A DNA stretch of 64,000 bases from sequence record MN850576.1; one strand, written 5' to 3'. Positions 5,359 to 15,466 of the stretch are shown one piece after another (positions within the stretch are counted from its first letter, which is position 1; each line of letters starts with the position of its first letter). The position numbers and the translations under genes were made by a program. The stretch comes from Escherichia phage ime. A model generated the notes under the pieces. That model saw only the letters and a list, made by a program, of their open reading frames with translations. It made no database searches and had not been told where the DNA came from.

Positions 5359-5435
5359 TGGTCTCCACGGAGTGATTCGAACACTCGACCTCCTGATCCC
5401 AAATCAGGCGCTCTACCAAGCTGAGCTACGCGGAG
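5359..5435 (-). tRNA. tRNA-Pro (anticodon TGG)
   Basis: Manual cloverleaf: C1-G72 acceptor (typical of Pro), D-arm TAGCTCAGCTTGGTAGAGC, anticodon stem CCTGA/TCAGG with loop TTTGGGA, T-loop TTCGAAT, encoded CCA. Confidence 0.85.
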
Positions 5436-5446
5436 TATTTATTATT

Positions 5447-5521
5447 TGGTGGCCCTGGGTGGAATTGAACCACCGTCTGGCGATTATGAGTCGCTTGCTT
5501 GAACCTTCCAGCTACAGGGCC
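5447..5521 (-). tRNA. tRNA-Met (anticodon CAT; elongator-type or Ile-CAT not distinguishable)
   Basis: Manual fold: acceptor GGCCCTG/CAGGGCC, anticodon loop CTCATAA, T-arm GGTGG-TTCAATT-CCACC, encoded CCA; G1-C72 pair argues against initiator. Confidence 0.75.
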
Positions 5522-5522
5522 A

Positions 5523-5598
5523 TGGTGCTGATGGCAGGACTTGAACCTGCAACCTATTGATTACAAATCAATTGCACTACCAATTGTGCTACATCAGC
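5523..5598 (-). tRNA. tRNA-Thr (anticodon TGT)
   Basis: Manual fold: acceptor GCTGATG/CATCAGC, D-stem GCAC/GTGC, anticodon stem ATTGA/TCAAT loop TTTGTAA, T-arm GCAGG-TTCAAGT-CCTGC, CCA. Confidence 0.85.
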
Positions 5599-5603
5599 AA
5601 AAA

Positions 5604-5702
5604 GGTGCTAGGTGATGGAATCGAACCACCTATGTATTCAACGACTACCTCGTCTATTTTCAGGATTAAAAATCCTCGCCCTTGCCAAAGGGCTTACCTA
5701 GC
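5604..5702 (-). tRNA. aberrant tRNA-like element (Lys-TTT-like anticodon arm; about 25-nt insertion in variable region); possible pseudo-tRNA
   Basis: Perfect 7-bp acceptor GCTAGGT/ACCTAGC, D-arm GCCC-TTTGGCAA-GGGC, T-arm GGTGG-TTCGATT-CCATC, anticodon arm AGGA-TTTTTAA-TCCT; about 30 nt between anticodon and T arms; CC but no terminal A encoded. Confidence 0.4.
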
Positions 5703-5800
5703 TCAGTATGTTGACCATGTTGCTAGTCGGCGATGACGACTGTAACATTTGATAATCCGGTTCTGCTTCCGGCTTTCGCTTAATTACAAGGTCAACAATA

Positions 5801-5891
5801 TGGCTGAGGGTAATGGAATCGAACCATCATCAAGTCATCCTCAACGGGACGGTTTTCAAGACCGCTTGAGCACCATTGCTCCCTACCCTCA
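5801..5891 (-). tRNA. tRNA-Ser (anticodon TGA), type II with long variable arm
   Basis: Manual fold: acceptor TGAGGGT/ACCCTCA, anticodon stem GCGGT/ACCGT loop CTTGAAA, long variable arm, T-loop TTCGATT, encoded CCA; 91 nt. Confidence 0.8.
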
Positions 5892-6005
5892 TTTATAAAC
5901 AATACTGATAATGACACTGATTTTCGAGCAGTTAGTGACTAGTATAAACGACGATAAATATCAATGCCATTATCTGTATGATTTATGCATTTAAAACTAT
6001 AAATT

Positions 6006-6092
6006 TGGTGGGGAGTGGTGGAGTCGAACCACCCGAGTCGCAATGACAATAGATTTACAGTCTACACCGCTACCCCTACGGGATAACTCCCC
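6006..6092 (-). tRNA. tRNA-Tyr (anticodon GTA), type II
   Basis: Anticodon arm GTAGA-CTGTAAA-TCTAT, variable arm about 15 nt, T-arm GGTGG-TTCGACT-CCACC, acceptor GGGGAGT/ACTCCCC, CCA; resembles bacterial tRNA-Tyr layout. Confidence 0.8.
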
Positions 6093-6096
6093 AATT

Positions 6097-6171
6097 TGGC
6101 ACCCCGTACTGGACTCGAACCAGTGTCAACGGCTTAGAAGGCCGCTGCTTTATCCACTAAGCTAACAGGGC
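6097..6171 (-). tRNA. tRNA-Arg (anticodon TCT)
   Basis: Acceptor GCCCTGT/ACGGGGT (2 G-U pairs), D-stem GCTT/AAGC, anticodon stem GCGGC/GCCGT loop CTTCTAA, T-arm ACTGG-TTCGAGT-CCAGT, CCA. Confidence 0.8.
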
Positions 6172-6950: not shown

Positions 6951-7193
6951 TCATTGTAAAGCACAAATAAATAAAACATACTTAATTTGTTTGTTATCAG
7001 GCTCAGGGTAGAAGTAGAAGATCTTGCTATCACCGATCTGAACACCACCATCCCAACAGCATAGCCCATAACCCGTATTCATACAAGCTAAGTCGTTGGC
7101 AAAATCTATTGCATCATCCAGTGCACGAAATTCACCTTCATCTTCTAAATAATCCTCATTCATGGAACGAAAAACGAGCTTAACCTTAAACAT
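6951..7193 (-). CDS. hypothetical protein
   Basis: 80-aa ORF in leftward block; no recognisable domain. Confidence 0.35.
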   Translation of the reverse strand: MFKVKLVFRSMNEDYLEDEGEFRALDDAIDFANDLACMNTGYGLCCWDGGVQIGDSKIFYFYPEPDNKQIKYVLFICALQ

Positions 7194-7479: not shown

Positions 7480-8047
7480 AGTAAATCTTATTTAACATTA
7501 CCTCATCCTTTGCAGAAAGGATATCAAGATATGCATCACCAAATCTTCCTGCAACAACCTCTGCATGATACATCACTTCGTTAACATCGTCAAGAGTGAT
7601 AACCGGATGACCATATCTTTCTGAATATTGTCTCAGGGTGCGATGTAACGAGTCGTCATCATATGCAGACTTTTTAATATCACAAACACGACGAATAGCC
7701 TTGATGTCGAAAAAACCTGTGCGATACCACCCAAGAAAAAGGTTTCGTGCAGTGTCAACATCTACATTGATACCATCAAGAACCTTATCTACAAGATAGC
7801 TGTCATCCTTTGGACCAGCGTCCTTAGTGCGAATGTAGTTGCCATCTTTTCCAGGCGACATCTCCTTCTCATCCCCAACCTGCATGCCATCATTTGGCGG
7901 TGTTAGCCACTTATCCGGATGCTTACGATCACGAGCGTTAGAATGATTACGCTGGAAACCGGGCTTCCACTTGAAAGTTTTCTCCATCTGTTCTTCATTC
8001 TGATAACGTTTTGCAATCTTTTCACGGTCATCTTTGCGTGAACCCAT
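7469..8047 (-). CDS. hypothetical protein
   Basis: 192-aa ORF; GAGGAGG SD immediately upstream of ATG at 8045-8047. Confidence 0.5.
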   Translation of the reverse strand: MGSRKDDREKIAKRYQNEEQMEKTFKWKPGFQRNHSNARDRKHPDKWLTPPNDGMQVGDEKEMSPGKDGNYIRTKDAGPKDDSYLVDKVLDGINVDVDTARNLFLGWYRTGFFDIKAIRRVCDIKKSAYDDDSLHRTLRQYSERYGHPVITLDDVNEVMYHAEVVAGRFGDAYLDILSAKDEVMLNKIYYER

Positions 8048-8132
8048 AGCTGCCTCCTCTTCAAGTTATAGAAAAACTAACTGTATCGCTTTGTAACGAG
8101 CTTTTCTATCAAACTGGTGCGATTGCATTACC

Positions 8133-8711: not shown

Positions 8712-9062
8712 CTAACCAGTTGTTGACATCCGAATAACTTCTTCTGGTGGCAAAACTTTGGAAAATGTGCATCTTTTACCTCTCCCTTGTGTGGATGTCT
8801 CAACCACTCCTGCACATTCTAAAGTTTTAACGCACGCTGCTGCTTTTGTTTTCTTTATCCCAACATCTGCTGCAATTTTCCTTGTGCTTGGTGTGAAGCG
8901 TGAATTTCCTCCAAGCTTATACCAGTTATGCAGGTAGCAGTATACGATCTTGTCATACAAGTCAAGAACAACAACCTCCCCAGTTGTGTCATTCAAAACT
9001 TTTGACATAGATAGTATTTCAAGGGGGACTTTAAGATATAGCAGCTTATCCCCATCTTTCAT
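8712..9062 (-). CDS. putative helix-turn-helix DNA-binding protein
   Basis: 116 aa; C-terminal segment STRKIAADVGIKKTKAAACVKTLECAGVV resembles a winged-HTH recognition region; adjacent to palindrome array. Confidence 0.45.
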   Translation of the reverse strand: MKDGDKLLYLKVPLEILSMSKVLNDTTGEVVVLDLYDKIVYCYLHNWYKLGGNSRFTPSTRKIAADVGIKKTKAAACVKTLECAGVVETSTQGRGKRCTFSKVLPPEEVIRMSTTG

Positions 9063-9109
9063 ATCTCCTGATTCTCCTTGTGTGGCAATTTTCTTTAAAA
9101 TAGCAGGGA

Positions 9110-9664
9110 TTACTCCCTGCTGTCAATATCAAAACTCATTGCAATACGGTATGCCTCTTCTAATGGTAAGAGTCTCCCCCACACATCCCAACCGACATCA
9201 AGCTGCCTGCCAAACAACTGTTGTGTGGTTCCGTGAGCATGACCGAACAGTTGGACTGATCCGTGAGGCTTTCTGTTCCACTTTGCAAACTGGTAATGGC
9301 TCATACAGATCAAATTCTTGTTGTGGCGAAGCTCGTAATAATCTACAACCTCATGACCGAACTCTTTCATAATTCTGACAGTCGTCCTTGTGTCATGGTT
9401 GCCACGAACAAGAATAATATGTCCGTTCAACATATTTAGAATATCTGGAAGCAAGTTGTTGATATTCTTATCATTAGTGCACGCAATATCTCCCAAGTGG
9501 AACACAGTGTCTGCAGGTGACACAACAGAGTTCCACTCGGCGATGATTCCCGCATTCATACTGTCAAGATTGTGATCATACTGAGATCTGTGTTTTTGAC
9601 ATGAATCAAACTCCATGACCCGCTGGTGGAGAAAGTGTGTGTCGCTTGTTACAAAGTATTTCAT
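9110..9664 (-). CDS. calcineurin-like metallophosphoesterase
   Basis: Starts MKYFVTSDTHF; motifs GDIACTNDKN and GNHD typical of metallophosphoesterases; ORF track start trimmed to Met at 9662-9664 with GAGGA SD; directly follows kinase stop. Confidence 0.7.
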   Translation of the reverse strand: MKYFVTSDTHFLHQRVMEFDSCQKHRSQYDHNLDSMNAGIIAEWNSVVSPADTVFHLGDIACTNDKNINNLLPDILNMLNGHIILVRGNHDTRTTVRIMKEFGHEVVDYYELRHNKNLICMSHYQFAKWNRKPHGSVQLFGHAHGTTQQLFGRQLDVGWDVWGRLLPLEEAYRIAMSFDIDSRE

Positions 9665-9671
9665 ACATTCC

Positions 9672-10139
9672 TCATTTAAGTTTAATGCAGTTTTTAAGCT
9701 GGCGTTCCATACGATCCACAACCTTGTCTGGAACATCATGAATGCTTTTATTACCGTGGCGGTTTTCAACCACGATCACGGTATAACTATACCCATGACT
9801 GATTGCCATGTCAACATATTCCTGCACATGTTTTTCTTTTGTAAACGTATTACTTACCACGATACGGTCGTATCCCATACGCATCATATCTTCTACGTTA
9901 TCTTTGCACCATTTTGCTGCGAGTGTTACTTTACTTGCATCCCAGTTGTAATTGCCGTCATCGTCATACCAGAACATGTCGTTCTCAAAATGTGGATACA
10001 GACCCTCTAAAGATAGCGCATTTGCCAGTGTTGATTTGCCAGACCCTGGTAGACCACGCACGATATATAGCATTTTAGACATAGTGACCCTCCGTTTTAA
10101 TTTCAACGGTAGTATACCTAACTGTTTTGTTAATTTCAA
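9672..10139 (-). CDS. P-loop kinase, polynucleotide-kinase-like
   Basis: 155 aa; Walker A GLPGSGKSTLA near N-terminus as in T4 Pnk kinase domain; followed by phosphoesterase gene. Confidence 0.55.
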   Translation of the reverse strand: MKLTKQLGILPLKLKRRVTMSKMLYIVRGLPGSGKSTLANALSLEGLYPHFENDMFWYDDDGNYNWDASKVTLAAKWCKDNVEDMMRMGYDRIVVSNTFTKEKHVQEYVDMAISHGYSYTVIVVENRHGNKSIHDVPDKVVDRMERQLKNCIKLK

Positions 10140-10203
10140 GTGTTGACACTAGGTTATTTGTGTGGCAGGATAGACTGACAAAATGACAAATGAGGAACGT
10201 ATA

Positions 10204-11118
10204 ATGAAGTATTTTAATGCAGACGACCTGGTTGACAAAGGTCTTGTAACCAGTAGGTATTACCCAGATCTCGGGTTAAAGATCTATAAATATGCTAGAA
10301 AAGTATTTTACAACAATTTATGGCATTTGTCCCCTCGTTTACTGGAGTGCCGAGGCATTGTTGTAGGTAATGAAGGAAATGTTGTGGCATGGCCCTTCAC
10401 AAAAGTGTTTAACTTGGGAGAAAACTCCACCAACCTGCCTGACAATAAGCTTGTGACTGCGGTAGAGAAAAAGAACGGATTCCTTGGTGTGGTATCATCT
10501 CATAAAGGTGACCTATTGTTCTCAACAACCGGGTCTCTTGATTCTCCATATTGTAACCTTGCAAAGGAAACCATCCAAGAGCAATGTGGTAATTTAGATC
10601 TTATCAAGAAGGTTATGGGCAATGAAAACATGACATTCATGTTTGAAATTTGTCACCCTTCAGATCCGCATATTGTTCAAGAAGACCATGGCGCATATTT
10701 GATAGGTTGCAGATATAATGATTCTGGAATAATGCTACCAGAAGCAGCTTTAGATGGGATTGCCAAATACCTTGGTGCAAAACGTCCTCACACTGTGCGT
10801 GAAATCCCGTTCAGCTATGCAAAAGAATTAGCCGCAGAAACAAGGGGCGAAGGGTATATGATCCGTAAGCCTTACTACCCTTATGACCTGCAGCTGAAGA
10901 TCAAGTCTCCATACTACCTGGCACGGAAGGCCGTAATGAGGGGTAAAGCTTGGAAGATTTGGGATGATGATATCTTTAAACGTGTTGACGAAGAGTTTTA
11001 CGGCATGGTAAACTTCATTCGTAACAATTACACAGAAGATGTGTGGAACTGCCTCCTGGAGCAGGAACGCCGTGAGATACTTGATTACTATTTCCACAAC
11101 GAGAACTATATGCAATGA
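10204..11118 (+). CDS. putative RNA ligase-like nucleotidyltransferase
   Basis: Covalent nucleotidyltransferase motifs: motif I KKNGF (KxNG), motif IV-like EGYMIRK, motif V-like LKIK; start set at Met 10204 with GAGGA SD (ORF track start 10183). Confidence 0.5.
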   Translation: MKYFNADDLVDKGLVTSRYYPDLGLKIYKYARKVFYNNLWHLSPRLLECRGIVVGNEGNVVAWPFTKVFNLGENSTNLPDNKLVTAVEKKNGFLGVVSSHKGDLLFSTTGSLDSPYCNLAKETIQEQCGNLDLIKKVMGNENMTFMFEICHPSDPHIVQEDHGAYLIGCRYNDSGIMLPEAALDGIAKYLGAKRPHTVREIPFSYAKELAAETRGEGYMIRKPYYPYDLQLKIKSPYYLARKAVMRGKAWKIWDDDIFKRVDEEFYGMVNFIRNNYTEDVWNCLLEQERREILDYYFHNENYMQ

Positions 11119-11465
11119 AGAAGTTGATTGTGTGGCTGGATGACTTGAGAGATCCGTCAAATTATGGGCTCCCCGACGCTATTTGGCTAAAGAATTCCTC
11201 CGAGTTTATAGATTTTATTAACGATAGGGGAAAGCTCTACAGACGCGTTTCTGAGTGGCACATGGACAACGACCTTGGAGAGTTGTTCGAAGGGTACGAT
11301 TGCCTATCTATGTTGGAGGAAAAATTTGTATTTGGTAAGCCCCCTGTAGTTGACAACGTGAAGATTTTCGTGCATACTTCTAACCCATCAGCGGCTCGTA
11401 AATTCATGCTTGCAGCTGACTCGTTTAAAAAGTTTGGAATAGAGATTAAACAAAACATCTACTGA
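11115..11465 (+). CDS. hypothetical protein (inside RNA-repair/Sir2 cluster)
   Basis: 116-aa ORF with ATGA overlap to upstream gene; no domain recognised. Confidence 0.45.
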   Translation: MKKLIVWLDDLRDPSNYGLPDAIWLKNSSEFIDFINDRGKLYRRVSEWHMDNDLGELFEGYDCLSMLEEKFVFGKPPVVDNVKIFVHTSNPSAARKFMLAADSFKKFGIEIKQNIY

Positions 11466-11473
11466 GGACACTT

Positions 11474-12235
11474 ATGCGACGACTGATTATTATCTCCGGT
11501 GCTGGTTTGAGCGCTGAATCTGGTATTCCCACTTTCCGATCTGGTAGCACTGCAATGTGGGAGAATTTCAGCATCGATGAGGTGTGCAACATCCACACCT
11601 TTGCCAAGAACTACTACAAGGTGCATGACTTTTACAATGCACGTCGTGTAGCTCTAGGCGGTGTTGAGCCTAACCTTGCACATCTTCGGATCGCTGAGTG
11701 GTATTCCCGCTGGTCTGGTCGTGTGATCAACCTTACCACCAATGTAGATGATTTGCTGGAGCGTGCTGGTGTAAAACATGAAGATATTTTACATGTTCAC
11801 GGGTATTTGCCAGAAATAGTCTATGAGGACGATGAAGGAAGTGACGTCATTAAGGACATTGGATACTCTGAGGTAGATGCAGGAAAGTATACCTGGGTTA
11901 AACCTAATGTGGTGTTCTTCGGAGAAGTAGCTCCGAAGTATACAGACATGTATGACCTGTTGACTTCTCTTACAAGCAATGATATGGTTATCCTTGTAGG
12001 GTGTTCCAACACAGTTATCAATTTTAACTGGGAGCTATTCCCTGCCTGCAATAAGGGCACCAAACTGCTGATCGTTAACAAATACGACTCACAGCATCTA
12101 GAGGAGAATGGCATTTCACGTAGTGATATTTACCAGTACGAGGATCGCGGCATCCCGGTTTGGTTTAACGGGGCGGTTGACGCTTTCTCTGATAAAACAT
12201 TCATTGAGACCGTAGAAAACTTTATGGAACTTTAA
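11474..12235 (+). CDS. Sir2-family (sirtuin-like) NAD-binding protein lacking the zinc-ribbon module
   Basis: N-terminal GAGLSAESGIPTFRSG, TTNVDDLLERAG and HVHG motifs match sirtuin NAD-binding/catalytic signatures; no CxxC pairs anywhere in the protein. Confidence 0.8.
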   Translation: MRRLIIISGAGLSAESGIPTFRSGSTAMWENFSIDEVCNIHTFAKNYYKVHDFYNARRVALGGVEPNLAHLRIAEWYSRWSGRVINLTTNVDDLLERAGVKHEDILHVHGYLPEIVYEDDEGSDVIKDIGYSEVDAGKYTWVKPNVVFFGEVAPKYTDMYDLLTSLTSNDMVILVGCSNTVINFNWELFPACNKGTKLLIVNKYDSQHLEENGISRSDIYQYEDRGIPVWFNGAVDAFSDKTFIETVENFMEL

Positions 12236-12248
12236 AAGGAGACCTTTA

Positions 12249-12962
12249 ATGCTGAATACTAAACTGATCGACAACCTGGAAAAACTGTCTCAGCCTGAAA
12301 ACTACCTTTGGTCTGCCAACTGGGTGGAAAACTGGAACCGTGTGGCAGCTAAAGTGAAAAAATCATACACACCATTCGAATTACAGCTTAGCTTCATTGA
12401 GGAAGAGTTCAATGAGGTTTTGGAAGAGCTGGAGAAAGGTGATGGTGGAGATCACCTGCTAAAAGAGGCCTGCGATCTTCACGTTGTCACAAGTTATGCC
12501 GCTTATCTTGTTAATGATAATCACGAAAAGTGGTCAAACCTGTTTGATAATCCACGAGGTCTTAAGTTCAAGATCGGTGAGTTCTATGATACACTGATCG
12601 CTGCGAAAAACACATCCAAGCAAAGAGCGTCAGCTTACCGCTTAGCGGAGTTGTCAACAGCTTTGCTGTTCCAGCTTCGCGGCGATGTGTGTGGGATGAT
12701 GCGGAAGGTTCTCAAATCTAATGACAGCAAGTTTGCACGGATCAACCATCTACGATATTCTCACGGTGCCAGTGCAGATATGTCTACTGAATTGCTCATA
12801 GAGTTAGAGATTGAAGATCTTGAGCGTCGTTTTGGTGGTCGCTACGAAGGTTTCGTTGCTAAAGAGGAGTTCTACAACGGTAATAAAGTTATTATATTCC
12901 TTGACAGTAAAGGTAAGATTATGAAGCCTTCGAGCTTCAAGGATGTAACAGAGTATATTTAA
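12249..12962 (+). CDS. hypothetical protein, possible MazG-like nucleotide pyrophosphohydrolase domain
   Basis: EEEFNEVLEEL ... KEACD segment resembles MazG EExxE...ExxD metal-binding pattern; weak. Confidence 0.3.
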   Translation: MLNTKLIDNLEKLSQPENYLWSANWVENWNRVAAKVKKSYTPFELQLSFIEEEFNEVLEELEKGDGGDHLLKEACDLHVVTSYAAYLVNDNHEKWSNLFDNPRGLKFKIGEFYDTLIAAKNTSKQRASAYRLAELSTALLFQLRGDVCGMMRKVLKSNDSKFARINHLRYSHGASADMSTELLIELEIEDLERRFGGRYEGFVAKEEFYNGNKVIIFLDSKGKIMKPSSFKDVTEYI

Positions 12963-12968
12963 CAACAT

Positions 12969-12997
12969 AGCCGGGATTACCCGGCTTTACTTATTAT
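12969..12997 (+). terminator. rho-independent terminator
   Basis: Hairpin AGCCGGG-ATTA-CCCGGCT followed by T-rich TTACTTATTAT, immediately after stop at 12960-12962. Confidence 0.5.
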
Positions 12998-13024
12998 GGA
13001 AAGTATGCAGTGAGGTAGTTAGTT

Positions 13025-13333
13025 ATGTACAAGCATTCCAGAGATCTTGAAAAAGATGCTGTGTTTGGCGACCAGATGAAGGAGCTGATCAAACTTATAG
13101 GTAGAATGGAAGATAAGTTTGACACTAAAATCTACATCGATAGCAAGATCTTCAACCACAAAATATGGACAAATGTGTGTGTTGGGCTACATGGTGATAA
13201 AGATATTGTAAATTTGGTTGTAATAAAGTTCATAGTGTGGCAGAATAGGACTATACGTTATTCCGATCCACACTTACTTGTTTATCCTATAAAAGACCTA
13301 CTACAGAAGGAGGACTGCAATGCCGTTATTTAA
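13025..13333 (+). CDS. hypothetical protein
   Basis: 102-aa ORF in rightward block. Confidence 0.4.
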   Translation: MYKHSRDLEKDAVFGDQMKELIKLIGRMEDKFDTKIYIDSKIFNHKIWTNVCVGLHGDKDIVNLVVIKFIVWQNRTIRYSDPHLLVYPIKDLLQKEDCNAVI

Positions 13334-13589
13334 TCTTGCTAAACCTGTAGAAGCACACCAGTTTGATGGAAGCTCTTCATCAGTATCTGATCTGCAACGG
13401 TGGATTGATACAGGTGTGTTTACATCGTCACCTGTTCGGACCAGAGATATTCGTCGCATGTGTGAGCTTGTTGAGCCGTTTGGCAACTTGGTTTTGTACC
13501 AGGGAGATTGGTTAGTTGACTTTATGGGAGACTGGTTGGTAATGAGTAAAGAAGAGATGTTTAAAATTTTTAAGGAAGAGGCCGAGTAA
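13320..13589 (+). CDS. hypothetical protein
   Basis: 89-aa ORF; overlaps neighbours by a few nt (coupled). Confidence 0.4.
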   Translation: MPLFNLAKPVEAHQFDGSSSSVSDLQRWIDTGVFTSSPVRTRDIRRMCELVEPFGNLVLYQGDWLVDFMGDWLVMSKEEMFKIFKEEAE

Positions 13590-14872
13590 TGCATCAAATC
13601 AAAACAACACTGTACGCACTGAACAAAGATGGCAGCTACCAACAGTGGAAAGTATTCACTGATGGCGAAAAGGTTATCGTAGAGTTTGGCAAGCTTGACG
13701 GTAAATTGCAGTACAAAGAGACGGTATGTACACCTAAAAACGTAGGTCGTGCCAACGAGACTACAGCTGAGCAACAGGCCGAGCTTGAGGCTATCAGCAA
13801 GTGGGAAAAACAAGTCCGTCTGGGGTATGTTGAAAACATGGAAGATTGCGAGCAGGGTGTTGATCTTTTACCTATGCTGGTGCATGACTACCTGAAGCGT
13901 GGCAAGGCACTTAAATTACCTTGCTGGATCTTGCGTAAGTTAGATGGCCTTCGTCTGCTTGTTGTTTTCCAAAATGGTGAGCCTAAATTTATTTCCCGTG
14001 GTAATAAGTCCTACCCTATTCAAGGAAAGCTTTTAGAGCAACTTCGTTCTTTCCATTCTACCACTGGGATTAAACAACTTGATGGGGAACTATACATTCA
14101 TGGTCTTCCTTTGCAGAAAATAGTGTCTCTTGCTAAACGGTGGCGCACACAGGAAGAGATTCAGGCCGAGATCGATAAAGACTATGAGGCAGATAAAAAA
14201 CGCCGTCATGCAGCAATTAAGGCAGGCTTATCAACATACAAAAACTTCAACAAGGTAGATATTCCTGTCGATGTTGAGCCTGTTCGTGATGATTTGCGTT
14301 ACGGTGGATACTGTAGCTACGATCTGGAGTATCACATTTTTGATATTCCTAGCGACAAGGTGTGGTGGGATCCAGAAACAGAGTCTGGACGCTGCAAGGA
14401 TCTTATGGATGCAGAGGATACCGTTACCACTCTGATGCTTGATCATATCAAGGTTGTTGACGCAGAGCTTGCGTACACAGTTGATCATTGCGAAGAATCT
14501 GTTGGTATATTCATGTCCGAAGGATATGAAGGTACTATCATGCGTAATTTCTGCGGTAAATATGAGTATGGTCAGCGAACATCTGAAGCATTGAAATGGA
14601 AAAAGTTCAACGACGCAGAGGTGAAAGTTATTGACGTTGAGAAAGATAAGAATGATGAAGGTGTTCTTATCTGTGTTGACAAGGAAGGTGTTGTTGTTAA
14701 AATGAAGATGAAAGGCACGCACGAGGAGCGTAGCTATGACAGGATGCAGGAAATGATCGGCAAGTTTGTCACCTTCAAATACCAAGCAAGGACAGAAGAC
14801 AACAACTACCAATTCCCTGTCGGTATCTGCGTCCGAAATGTTAACCCAGACACTTGGGAGGTGCTTGAATGA
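13589..14872 (+). CDS. ATP-dependent DNA ligase
   Basis: Motif I KLDGLR (KxDGxR), motif III-like LDGELYIHG; 427 aa. Confidence 0.75.
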   Translation: MHQIKTTLYALNKDGSYQQWKVFTDGEKVIVEFGKLDGKLQYKETVCTPKNVGRANETTAEQQAELEAISKWEKQVRLGYVENMEDCEQGVDLLPMLVHDYLKRGKALKLPCWILRKLDGLRLLVVFQNGEPKFISRGNKSYPIQGKLLEQLRSFHSTTGIKQLDGELYIHGLPLQKIVSLAKRWRTQEEIQAEIDKDYEADKKRRHAAIKAGLSTYKNFNKVDIPVDVEPVRDDLRYGGYCSYDLEYHIFDIPSDKVWWDPETESGRCKDLMDAEDTVTTLMLDHIKVVDAELAYTVDHCEESVGIFMSEGYEGTIMRNFCGKYEYGQRTSEALKWKKFNDAEVKVIDVEKDKNDEGVLICVDKEGVVVKMKMKGTHEERSYDRMQEMIGKFVTFKYQARTEDNNYQFPVGICVRNVNPDTWEVLE

Positions 14873-14995
14873 TGTAGGAAGGTTCAGTAGGTAACGGTAG
14901 CCAATTGAATGATGGTTTTCAATCGGCACCTACATAACCACACTGTGTAGTGTTGTTGATCGTGTTAGTTATGAGTAAACTGGAGAGTATGAAAA

Positions 14996-15466
14996 ATGAA
15001 ACTTGATAAAAATGTTCAACGAAAAGCTTTCTTGGACATGATCGCATATTCGGAAGGTACAGATAATGGTAGGCAACCCACTAAGGATCGGGGATACGAT
15101 GTCATAGTTGGTGGCAAGCTGTTTAGCGATTACAGCAAGCATCCAGGTGTGTACGTTAAGCTAAATGCTAAACTTACCTCCTCCGCTGCTGGTCGTTACC
15201 AGGTTTTGGAGAAGTTTGCTAAACACTACATGGAACAGTTAGGATTGCCAGATTTTGGCCCCGCCAGTCAGGACAAGATTGCGTTGCAACTGATCCGTGA
15301 GTGCAAGGCTCTCGCCGACATTGACGAAGGGCGTATCCACGAGGCTATCCATAAATGCCGTTCCCGCTGGGCTTCGTTACCTGGTGCTGGATATGGTCAG
15401 CATGAACAGAAGATCGAGAAGTTGATCGAGGTGTTTAAAAAGGCAGGCGGTGTTGTCCTTGATTGA
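14996..15466 (+). CDS. endolysin, lambda R-like lytic transglycosylase
   Basis: N-terminal KAFLDMIAYSEGTDNGRQPTKDRGYDVIVGG and C-terminal WASLPGAGYGQHEQK closely recall phage lambda R. Confidence 0.85.
   Translation: MKLDKNVQRKAFLDMIAYSEGTDNGRQPTKDRGYDVIVGGKLFSDYSKHPGVYVKLNAKLTSSAAGRYQVLEKFAKHYMEQLGLPDFGPASQDKIALQLIRECKALADIDEGRIHEAIHKCRSRWASLPGAGYGQHEQKIEKLIEVFKKAGGVVLD

Follow-up and report, generated by a model that had tools for sequence, protein, structure and literature searches.

The locus examined here raises the question of what a sirtuin does in the midst of the RNA-repair genes of a lytic phage. It lies in a 64,000-nucleotide stretch of Escherichia phage ime (MN850576.1), hereafter the window, which belongs to a Vequintavirus, an rV5-like myovirus of Escherichia coli; over bases 9000-15000, its identity is 100% with phages nomo (MN850578) and phita32 and 99.0% with MaxBurger/Bas54 (MZ501093). 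The element in question is a 253-aa Sir2-family protein encoded at 11474-12235, whose sirtuin motifs, three cysteines and absence of CxxC pairs had been pointed out in a preliminary description and are confirmed here. That description had taken the missing zinc ligands as the mark of a defence-type NADase or ADP-ribosyltransferase. The present analysis leads to another answer: the sirtuin is best explained as an accessory to a phage module for the healing and sealing of RNA ends, in which it may, as a tentative proposal, carry out an NAD+-dependent step of RNA repair on a presumed substrate.

The protein is a single-domain sirtuin. Indeed, Pfam SIR2 (PF02146) is its sole Pfam match (95.3 bits against a cut-off of 24) and aligns residues 9-181 with profile positions 1-178 of 180, and PHROG 2162 is matched with an E-value of 3e-109. 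The motifs GAGxSxxSGIPxFR, TxNxD and HG (with the catalytic histidine) are located at residues 9, 88 and 107, and fifteen residues (S16, G17, F21, R22, C38, Y54, R57, R58, N90, D92, H109, G110, K143, P144 and E151) are invariant among 56 family members. When a profile of these 56 members was compared with the PDB, the best solved relative was E. coli CobB (1S5P/6RXJ; E 3e-29), followed by the archaeal sirtuins Af1 and Af2 and by SIRT5. The AlphaFold2 model of the protein has a predicted local distance difference test (pLDDT) score of 90.3 and a predicted template modelling score of 0.88, and in a Foldseek comparison with the PDB its 50 highest-ranking hits are without exception lysine-deacylase sirtuins (CobB, Af1, SIRT5, Sir2Tm and SIRT2). 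A structural comparison with SirTM, ThsA-SIR2 and CobB had been suggested beforehand; CobB is indeed present among these top 50 matches, whereas no structure of SirTM or of a defence SIR2 is. With the alignment register set by the engineered CobB chains A76G, Y92A (6RXS), I131C/L and V187Y, the pair Y92/R95 of CobB corresponds to Y54/R57 of the phage sirtuin, A76 to the invariant C38, I131 to V91 and V187 to V146.

The Y-x-x-R pair is the signature of class III sirtuins and binds the distal carboxylate of succinyl- or malonyl-lysine. It is invariant in the core clade of the phage family. Since the catalytic residues and the Y-x-x-R pair are kept, the protein, judged from its sequence, is a catalytically intact sirtuin of the CobB/SIRT5 type (class III). 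The NCBIfam CobB/deacylase equivalogs are not reached (NF001753, the best, 122.4 bits against 243; NF040867 prot_deacyl_CobB, 102.7 against 320). No homology to Tpt1/KptA, which belongs to the ADP-ribosyltransferase (ART) superfamily, was detected, SIR2 being the only Pfam match and all fold matches being sirtuins. The family comprises 856 proteins at E <= 1e-5, phage T5 being represented among them; its longer members carry tandem SIR2 domains, WG repeats or leucine-rich repeats, which are uninformative on the substrate.

As for the zinc site, the only cysteines of the protein are C38, C177 and C192, no CxxC occurs anywhere, and no cysteine lies between H109 and P144, so that a Cys4 zinc ribbon is absent. 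The three-stranded sheet that normally holds the zinc (residues 110-118, 124-128 and 142-146) is still predicted, with a pLDDT of about 95, and the conserved L112, E114, G130, Y131 and W141 presumably stand in for the metal site. An exhaustive profile search of 1.84 billion representatives yielded 166 proteins below E 1e-30, of which the best 150, all scoring above CobB, were analysed: 54 are devoid of zinc ligands, 88 have at least four cysteines arranged as CxxC...CxxC and seven have three cysteines. Zinc-less members form the majority of the 25 closest representatives and, further down, are mixed among Cys4 members, and both groups have in common C38 (125 of the 150), the Y...R pair (108) and the N-D-H set (145). 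The zinc-bearing relatives are also viral, many of them being found on jumbo-phage-sized contigs. Since the two groups intermix and have their catalytic signature in common, the zinc site is a structural feature that varies inside a single viral sirtuin family. Its loss does not turn the protein into a defence-type enzyme, and the main premise of the earlier functional inference therefore falls.

The position of the gene is more informative. The three open reading frames (ORFs) described beforehand at 11115-12962 are real and form one co-directional unit next to the RNA-repair genes. This unit begins with the RNA ligase gene: because the ligase stop overlaps the start of the following ORF by 4 nt, the next gaps measure only 8 nt (cREC-Sir2) and 13 nt (Sir2-MazG-like) and a hairpin stands at the end, 10183-12962 can be read as one operon. 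The 116-aa ORF, previously deemed unclassifiable, is a cREC protein (cREC_REC, PF20274, 55.7 bits against a cut-off of 27), in which the motifs WLDDLRDP, DNDLGE and HTSNPSA are kept in all aligned copies; the sirtuin gene is therefore a member of the RNA-repair module rather than just its neighbour. The receiver-like cREC domain has been predicted to act on cyclic phosphates, either at RNA ends or on ADP-ribose (PMC7824862, PMC9503650), and the protein encoded at 11115-11465 is predicted to be a metal-independent cyclic phosphodiesterase.

The suspicion that the third ORF (237 aa) could be MazG-like was well founded. Indeed, this protein shows the fold and the EExxE...ExxD metal-binding acidic motifs of the all-alpha nucleoside triphosphate (NTP) pyrophosphohydrolases, its family of 16 homologues has invariant EEExxExxE...ExxD motifs, and it is an all-alpha NTP pyrophosphatase nearest to the dimeric dUTPases, with a small C-terminal beta module. 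It does not reach the gathering thresholds of Pfam MazG and PRA-PH (PRA-PH 13.7 bits against 21.3), and it gave no PDB sequence match and no Foldseek match below E 1e-3.

This sirtuin neighbourhood has been published before, as a computational prediction made within the same phage genus. Iyer, Burroughs, Anantharaman and Aravind (2022, Viruses 14:1977, PMC9503650, section 3.7.3) described a 'type 2' phage sirtuin neighbourhood, with Escherichia phage V5 and Proteus phage Mydo as prototypes, and predicted for the sirtuin a KptA/Tpt1-like removal of 2'-phosphates from RNA; a T5/SP15 type (with a HAD phosphatase) and a jumbo-phage type (with 2H, Nudix-cREC and PIN) are also described there. Two of these three contexts were recovered independently here, and the window agrees with the type 2 definition, with its six genes in 9110-12962 and no macro domain. 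Their study consists of comparative genomics only and is silent on the loss of zinc ligands, the Y-x-x-R pair, blocks devoid of Sir2 and essentiality. What is new here is the existence of a repair block without Sir2 and of Sir2 without repair genes, the frequent Sir2-NAMPT adjacency and the tolerance of Bas54 to disruption of the module. Literature searches turned up no experiments on phage sirtuins, Tpt1-like sirtuins or cREC; a paper on NARP3 (PMC13464706) that mentions a 'phage Sir2' was set aside as irrelevant, since it concerns a NadR/PnuC pair.

The gene contexts of relatives were studied in 59 IMG/VR loci containing close Sir2 relatives, screened by iterated hidden Markov models. In about 14 of them (type A, myoviruses of 140-153 kb) the order is metallophosphoesterase, RNA ligase, cREC (in eight loci), kinase, SIR2, DNA ligase and, further on, the MazG-like gene. 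Sir2 stays in the module despite reordering, the rV5-type arrangement being RNA ligase-cREC-SIR2-MazG-like and the Mydo-type arrangement RNA ligase-cREC-kinase-SIR2-DNA ligase, in which the kinase lies directly upstream and the DNA ligase directly downstream of Sir2. The metallophosphoesterase is co-located with the ligase and the kinase in about 14 related loci, and the DNA ligase is a recurrent neighbour of the sirtuin, adjacent to it in L023, L025, L026, L028, L031, L058 and L060; in L060 the order is Sir2, an uncharacterized gene, ATP-dependent DNA ligase and MazG. About 30 T5-like siphoviruses, T5 included, make up type B, with the order NrdD-T5.100/101-SIR2-T5.104-T5.105-T5.106/107. T5.102 is the Sir2 protein and is 58% identical to the window sirtuin, and T5.105, in the same operon and seen in 28 loci, is a 'Swiss-army-knife RNA-repair' phosphatase (Pfam HAD_SAK_2, 73 bits). 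Type C consists of about 11 loci (L032-35, 37, 38, 41 and 54-57) from phages of about 150 kb, in which the neighbours are DUF7275/7277 proteins and uncharacterized genes. Among distant relatives, Sir2 is occasionally near an RNA ligase (L075, L079), a kinase (L078, L120, L131/132), a HAD_SAK protein (L101, L133-135) or NAMPT (six loci); BLAST clustering of the neighbours in 58 distant loci gave lineage-specific clusters only. The link between Sir2 and RNA-end processing is thus frequent and arose more than once, and it is neither universal nor obligatory: Sir2 acts as an accessory gene, gained and lost.

Several other genes accompany Sir2 in these loci. In type B, T5.104 represents a family of 60-aa ORFs located 3' of Sir2, directly or one small ORF away (T5-like phages, L047, L049), and the tandem DUF7415 proteins T5.106 and T5.107 end the T5 operon; all of these are tightly linked to the sirtuin, at 6974-7156, 7652-8080 and 8090-8482 in L061 (phage T5), and L003-L022 are among the loci concerned. 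A conserved block is found in type C (L033 4712-9114; L035, L037, L041, L055), with a DUF7277/DUF7275 protein upstream of Sir2, together with a 200-240 aa protein containing 'AYQVDRDDxEGSVVVF' and, in L033, L035 and L037, an ORF of 168-195 aa upstream and an ORF of 85-90 aa with 'YVYYF...GEG' downstream; the last three have no Pfam assignment. A NAMPT-like gene adjoins the cREC/repair block or Sir2 in L065 (2376-5107), L066 (1642-4539), L059 (6057-7493, directly upstream of Sir2), L074, L094, L098, L107 and L133, and is accompanied by a phosphoribosyl pyrophosphate (PRPP) synthetase in L065 and L066. This adjacency in several unrelated phages suggests that nicotinamide recycling is coupled to an NAD+-consuming enzyme. 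Immediately 3' of Sir2, two distant jumbo-phage relatives encode a dATP/dGTP diphosphohydrolase (PF18909, L092 6912-7364) and a nucleoside 2-deoxyribosyltransferase-like protein (PF15891, L073 6707-7192), which are further links of the sirtuin family to nucleotide-processing enzymes.

Following Iyer et al., we infer a mechanism in which a host anticodon nuclease, or another metal-independent RNase, would cut tRNA or mRNA and leave 2',3'-cyclic phosphate and 5'-OH ends. The cyclic phosphate could be opened by cREC and/or the metallophosphoesterase, the 5'-OH would be phosphorylated by the kinase and the break would be sealed by the ligase. A residual 2'-phosphate would then be removed by the sirtuin with NAD+, as KptA/Tpt1 does. 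In this last step, a phosphate oxygen would attack C1'' of NAD+ and expel nicotinamide, and the 2''-OH of ADP-ribose, activated via His109, would resolve the adduct into ADP-ribose 1'',2''-cyclic phosphate, which cREC or the phosphoesterase could linearise. In the ordinary sirtuin cycle, an oxygen nucleophile attacks C1'', nicotinamide is lost and the 2''-OH then attacks the transferred group; Tpt1 runs a sirtuin-like sequence with phosphate. By analogy, it is plausible that the two-step phosphate chemistry mirrors sirtuin deacylation, with phosphate replacing the acyl carbonyl. An NAD+-consuming group transfer is expected since N90, D92 and H109 are invariant, and the anion-recognition motif Y54/R57, also invariant, fits an anionic substrate. 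In its strongest form, the proposal makes the sirtuin a true RNA 2'-phosphotransferase, that is, a non-homologous replacement of KptA/Tpt1 with phosphate as the nucleophile on NAD+, cREC either making its substrate or clearing its product; this form is possible, if doubtful.

A role of the sirtuin in RNA repair is supported by the operon, by the six domain identities, by the published neighbourhood and by the retention of Sir2 through rearrangement of the module. Independent support comes from the T5-like Sir2-HAD_SAK_2 operon and from the scattered co-localisation in distant relatives, and further support from the dispensability of the module in Bas54, from the absence of a macro domain in the genes flanking Sir2 and in the deposited annotation of the identical genome, and from the absence of any gene named KptA/Tpt1, macro or ART in the deposited genome annotation.

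Other observations weigh against this role. As regards the chemistry, the phosphate-directed step is a prediction, literature searches found no report of a phosphate nucleophile for any sirtuin, and the acyl-lysine tunnel of CobB is conservatively kept (I131 to V91, V187 to V146, FGE motif). Nearly all the conserved basic residues are common to CobB and the clade is strongly acidic (median isoelectric point 5.07, net charge about -13), so that no added RNA-binding surface is visible; this net-charge proxy speaks only weakly against an RNA substrate and does not settle the matter, given that the DNA ligase of the phage is acidic too. As regards the pathway, the kinase, metallophosphoesterase and Rnl1-like ligase make up a complete T4-type pathway that leaves no 2'-phosphate, and E. 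coli itself encodes KptA. As regards the genomes, type C Sir2 genes have no recognisable repair gene within 8 kb, and a 145-kb phage found via distant cREC homologues (L066) has cREC, metallophosphoesterase, RNA ligase, kinase, DNA ligase and MazG-like genes, with NAMPT and PRPP synthetase just upstream of this block, but no Sir2. The immediate Sir2 neighbours assigned by Pfam in distant jumbo-phage relatives are heterogeneous and show no consistent context, cREC is present in just 8 of the approximately 14 type A loci, and these loci are of common ancestry and hence not independent observations.

The behaviour of the module in the laboratory can be read from Bas54, which is 99% identical to the window phage across the locus and for which a HIDEN-SEQ preprint (bioRxiv 10.1101/2025.11.20.689424) provides a transposon tolerance map obtained in E. 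coli K-12 in LB. The sirtuin and its neighbours tolerate disruption in this map (Table 1), and the module is therefore dispensable in the laboratory. This is compatible with repair or counter-defence under particular conditions and rules out a housekeeping role. In a clinical E. coli strain, the same preprint reports no significant change in the module genes (sirtuin log2 fold change 0.13, adjusted p 1.0). In its Extended Data Table 8, sheets S6 (K-12 vs CFE303) and S7 (K-12 vs CFE311) hold, as stored, the same numbers in rows bas54_0187-0227; they therefore amount to one comparison at most, and one sheet may be a duplicate in the deposited file.

In the main alternative reading, which we consider somewhat unlikely, the enzyme would act on proteins instead of RNA, as an ordinary class III lysine deacylase (deacetylase or desuccinylase, CobB/SIRT5-like) of host or phage proteins. 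Its place in the operon would then result from shared expression timing or from a protein target in the pathway; speculatively, it could protect the neighbouring RNA and DNA ligases from acylation of their catalytic lysines, much as CobB reactivates acetyl-CoA synthetase. The protein itself speaks for such an activity: its closest solved relatives by sequence and by predicted fold are all lysine deacylases, CobB ranking first at 27% identity, the full catalytic set, the desuccinylase signature Y-x-x-R and the hydrophobic tunnel residues are kept, canonical zinc-bearing members occur in the same family and the acidic surface is like that of the CobB core. Many phages, moreover, carry Sir2 without repair neighbours, several lineages have it directly adjoining the ATP-dependent DNA ligase, the six loci with NAMPT next to Sir2 suit an enzyme that consumes NAD+ stoichiometrically and releases nicotinamide, and the gene is non-essential. 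However, the CobB/deacylase equivalogs remain far from their cut-offs (best 122 against 243), the repeated and partly independent co-localisation with RNA-end-processing enzymes is unexpected for a general deacylase, the host already supplies CobB, and the protection of ligase lysines is speculation.

The idea of the preliminary description, a zinc-less NADase or protein ADP-ribosyltransferase directed at host proteins or at immunity based on NAD+ (such as Thoeris, DSR or SIR2-HerA), is very improbable. The Sir2 fold, the intact NAD pocket and the lack of zinc ligands would agree with it, the gene is dispensable like many anti-defence genes, NAMPT adjoins Sir2 in some relatives and some sirtuins do ADP-ribosylate proteins. 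However, PADLOC gave no family match for the sirtuin at E <= 0.01, and, together with the composition of the top 50 fold matches, this led to the rejection of a defence-type SIR2 assignment, the closest matches being lysine-deacylase sirtuins. Neither the flanking genes nor the deposited annotation contain a macro-domain partner of the SirTM type, and no SLOG, HerA, TIR or pAgo partner or sensor is fused or adjacent, the neighbours being RNA-repair genes. The invariant catalytic Asn/Asp/His and Y-x-x-R and the zinc sheet that is still predicted likewise speak against it, and the interspersion of zinc-less and Cys4 members with one catalytic signature shows that zinc loss is no class marker. 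In addition, a phage-encoded NADase would deplete the NAD+ needed by the phage, and the deposited annotation of the window phage genome names no NAD+ salvage or NAD+-reconstitution genes. An RNA substrate other than a 2'-phosphate (amide-linked acyl removal from the N-acetyl-aminoacyl-tRNA made by GNAT toxins or from N4-acetylcytidine, or ADP-ribosylation of an RNA terminus) would reconcile the kept amide-deacylase active site with the RNA-repair context, but it is a speculative bridge between the RNA-repair and the deacylase hypotheses, no GNAT antitoxin-like or N4-acetylcytidine-related genes were seen alongside, and we hold it to be highly unlikely.

The features of the window are listed in Table 1.

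Table 1. Features at and around the sirtuin operon of the ime window, with the transposon tolerance of the corresponding Bas54 genes
Feature	Position	Strand	Matches and remarks	Bas54 gene (TA sites hit; class)
tRNA cluster, seven genes	5359-6171
tRNA-like gene, 97-99 nt	5604-5702	-	Rfam tRNA model 35.5 bits vs 29 (modest pass)
Calcineurin-like metallophosphoesterase	9110-9664	-	Metallophos_2 28.4 bits, Metallophos 27 bits (both above cut-off); phrog_547 1.6e-52	bas54_0211 (26/27; non-essential)
P-loop polynucleotide-kinase-like protein	9672-10082	-	Pfam AAA_33 41.8 bits; phrog_505 polynucleotide kinase 7.6e-10	bas54_0210 (33/36; non-essential)
T4 Rnl1-like RNA ligase, first gene of the operon	10183-11118	+	RNA_lig_T4_1 55.3 bits (cut-off 28.3); phrog_562 2.8e-66; start in deposited annotation 10204	bas54_0209 (56/60; non-essential)
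cREC domain protein, 116 aa	11115-11465	+	Pfam PF20274	bas54_0208 (16/21; Intermediate)
Zinc-less class-III-like sirtuin, 253 aa	11474-12235	+	Pfam SIR2	bas54_0207 (48/51; non-essential)
MazG/HisE/dimeric dUTPase superfamily all-alpha NTP pyrophosphohydrolase, 237 aa, last gene of the operon	12249-12962	+		bas54_0206 (35/40; non-essential)
GC-rich palindromic hairpin	12969-12986		7-bp stem, 6 GC pairs, found on both strands
Small ORF, 102 aa	13025-13333		phrog_7684
Small ORF, 89 aa	13320-13589		phrog_14585
ATP-dependent DNA ligase	13589-14872	+	Pfam DNA_ligase_A_M and DNA_ligase_OB_2; phrog_114 2.8e-83	bas54_0203 (69/73; non-essential)

From its domain matches, the metallophosphoesterase (annotated as nomo_166), whose gene is divergent from the ligase operon, is a candidate enzyme for the healing of RNA 3' ends, and the P-loop protein is a candidate 5'-OH kinase, its Bas54 orthologue being annotated as a polynucleotide kinase. 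In the nomo annotation, the kinase is named 'putative phosphoesterase' and the MazG-like ORF 'putative Sir2-like protein'; both names are contradicted by the domain matches and were apparently carried over from adjoining genes. The hairpin lies directly after the stop codon of the MazG-like gene and is likely the end of the transcription unit; its T-run is weak, so that the hairpin is a consensus match only. The two small ORFs that separate the MazG-like gene from the DNA ligase accompany the module in most type A loci. Within the tRNA cluster, the tRNA-like gene was reported by ARAGORN as 'tRNA-???' with a 4-base anticodon (atcc) and appears as tRNA-OTHER in the deposited record; an intron, a frameshift-suppressor-like function or degeneration of the tRNA could account for it.

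If the prediction of PMC9503650 is true, phosphate-directed transfer of ADP-ribose on RNA would join the reactions of the sirtuin fold as a new class, and for no sirtuin before the phage enzyme would a phosphate, in place of an acyl-amide, have been shown to serve as the nucleophile attacking NAD+. The eukaryotic Trl1/Tpt1 logic of tRNA repair would then have been reinvented by phages from a receiver-like domain and a sirtuin, so that enterobacterial phages would own a plant/fungal-style 2'-phosphate tRNA repair built from unrelated folds, which would bear on the survival of therapeutic coliphages (T5-like, rV5-like and related ones) in the face of defences that cleave tRNA and mRNA. Should the protein be an ordinary deacylase, it would join a small number of phage enzymes known to alter the lysine acylation of the host. 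Missing zinc cysteines alone do not predict a defence-type NADase. Under both readings the gene is widespread and its product can be assayed at little cost, and confirmation of the prediction would be notable.

Among the systems already described, the type 2 neighbourhood of Iyer et al. is the nearest. Its genes are those of the window module (sirtuin, T4-like RNA ligase, cREC, nucleotide kinase, MazG-superfamily pyrophosphatase and calcineurin-like phosphoesterase), its prototype V5 belongs to the genus of the window phage, and no substantive difference was found. With CobB and SIRT5, the phage sirtuin shares the Rossmann fold and small domain, the GAGxS, TxNxD and HG motifs and, column for column, the Y-x-x-R pocket; it differs from CobB in its identity of only about 27%, in the lack of all four zinc cysteines with the sheet kept, in the replacement of A76 by an invariant Cys38, in its location in the RNA-repair operon of a lytic phage and in its distance from the NCBIfam CobB cut-offs. 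The likeness to KptA/Tpt1 would be a functional analogy only, namely the NAD+-dependent removal of an RNA 2'-phosphate via an ADP-ribosylated intermediate as a post-ligation step, whereas the Tpt1 fold belongs to the unrelated ART superfamily and shows no similarity in sequence or structure. Several defence SIR2 and SirTM proteins likewise have no Cys4 zinc site. The defence SIR2 NADases (ThsA, DSR1/2, SIR2-HerA, SIR2-APAZ) and SirTM share with the phage sirtuin the Sir2 superfamily and NAD+ as substrate; the latter, however, is encoded by a phage and not by a host, has no PADLOC match and no fused or adjacent SLOG, HerA, pAgo or macro domain, and keeps the class III motifs and the ribbon-shaped sheet. 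Finally, the module resembles the T4 Pnkp-Rnl1 pathway, which counters the PrrC anticodon nuclease, in combining an Rnl1-family ligase, a 5'-kinase and a 3'-end phosphoesterase in a virulent coliphage with a tRNA cluster. It differs from that pathway in that the kinase and phosphatase activities are divided between two proteins, a metallophosphoesterase serves as the phosphatase instead of a HAD enzyme, T4 RnlA is only distant kin of the ligase (38.7 bits against 242 for TIGR02308), and cREC, Sir2 and the MazG-like gene are added to it.

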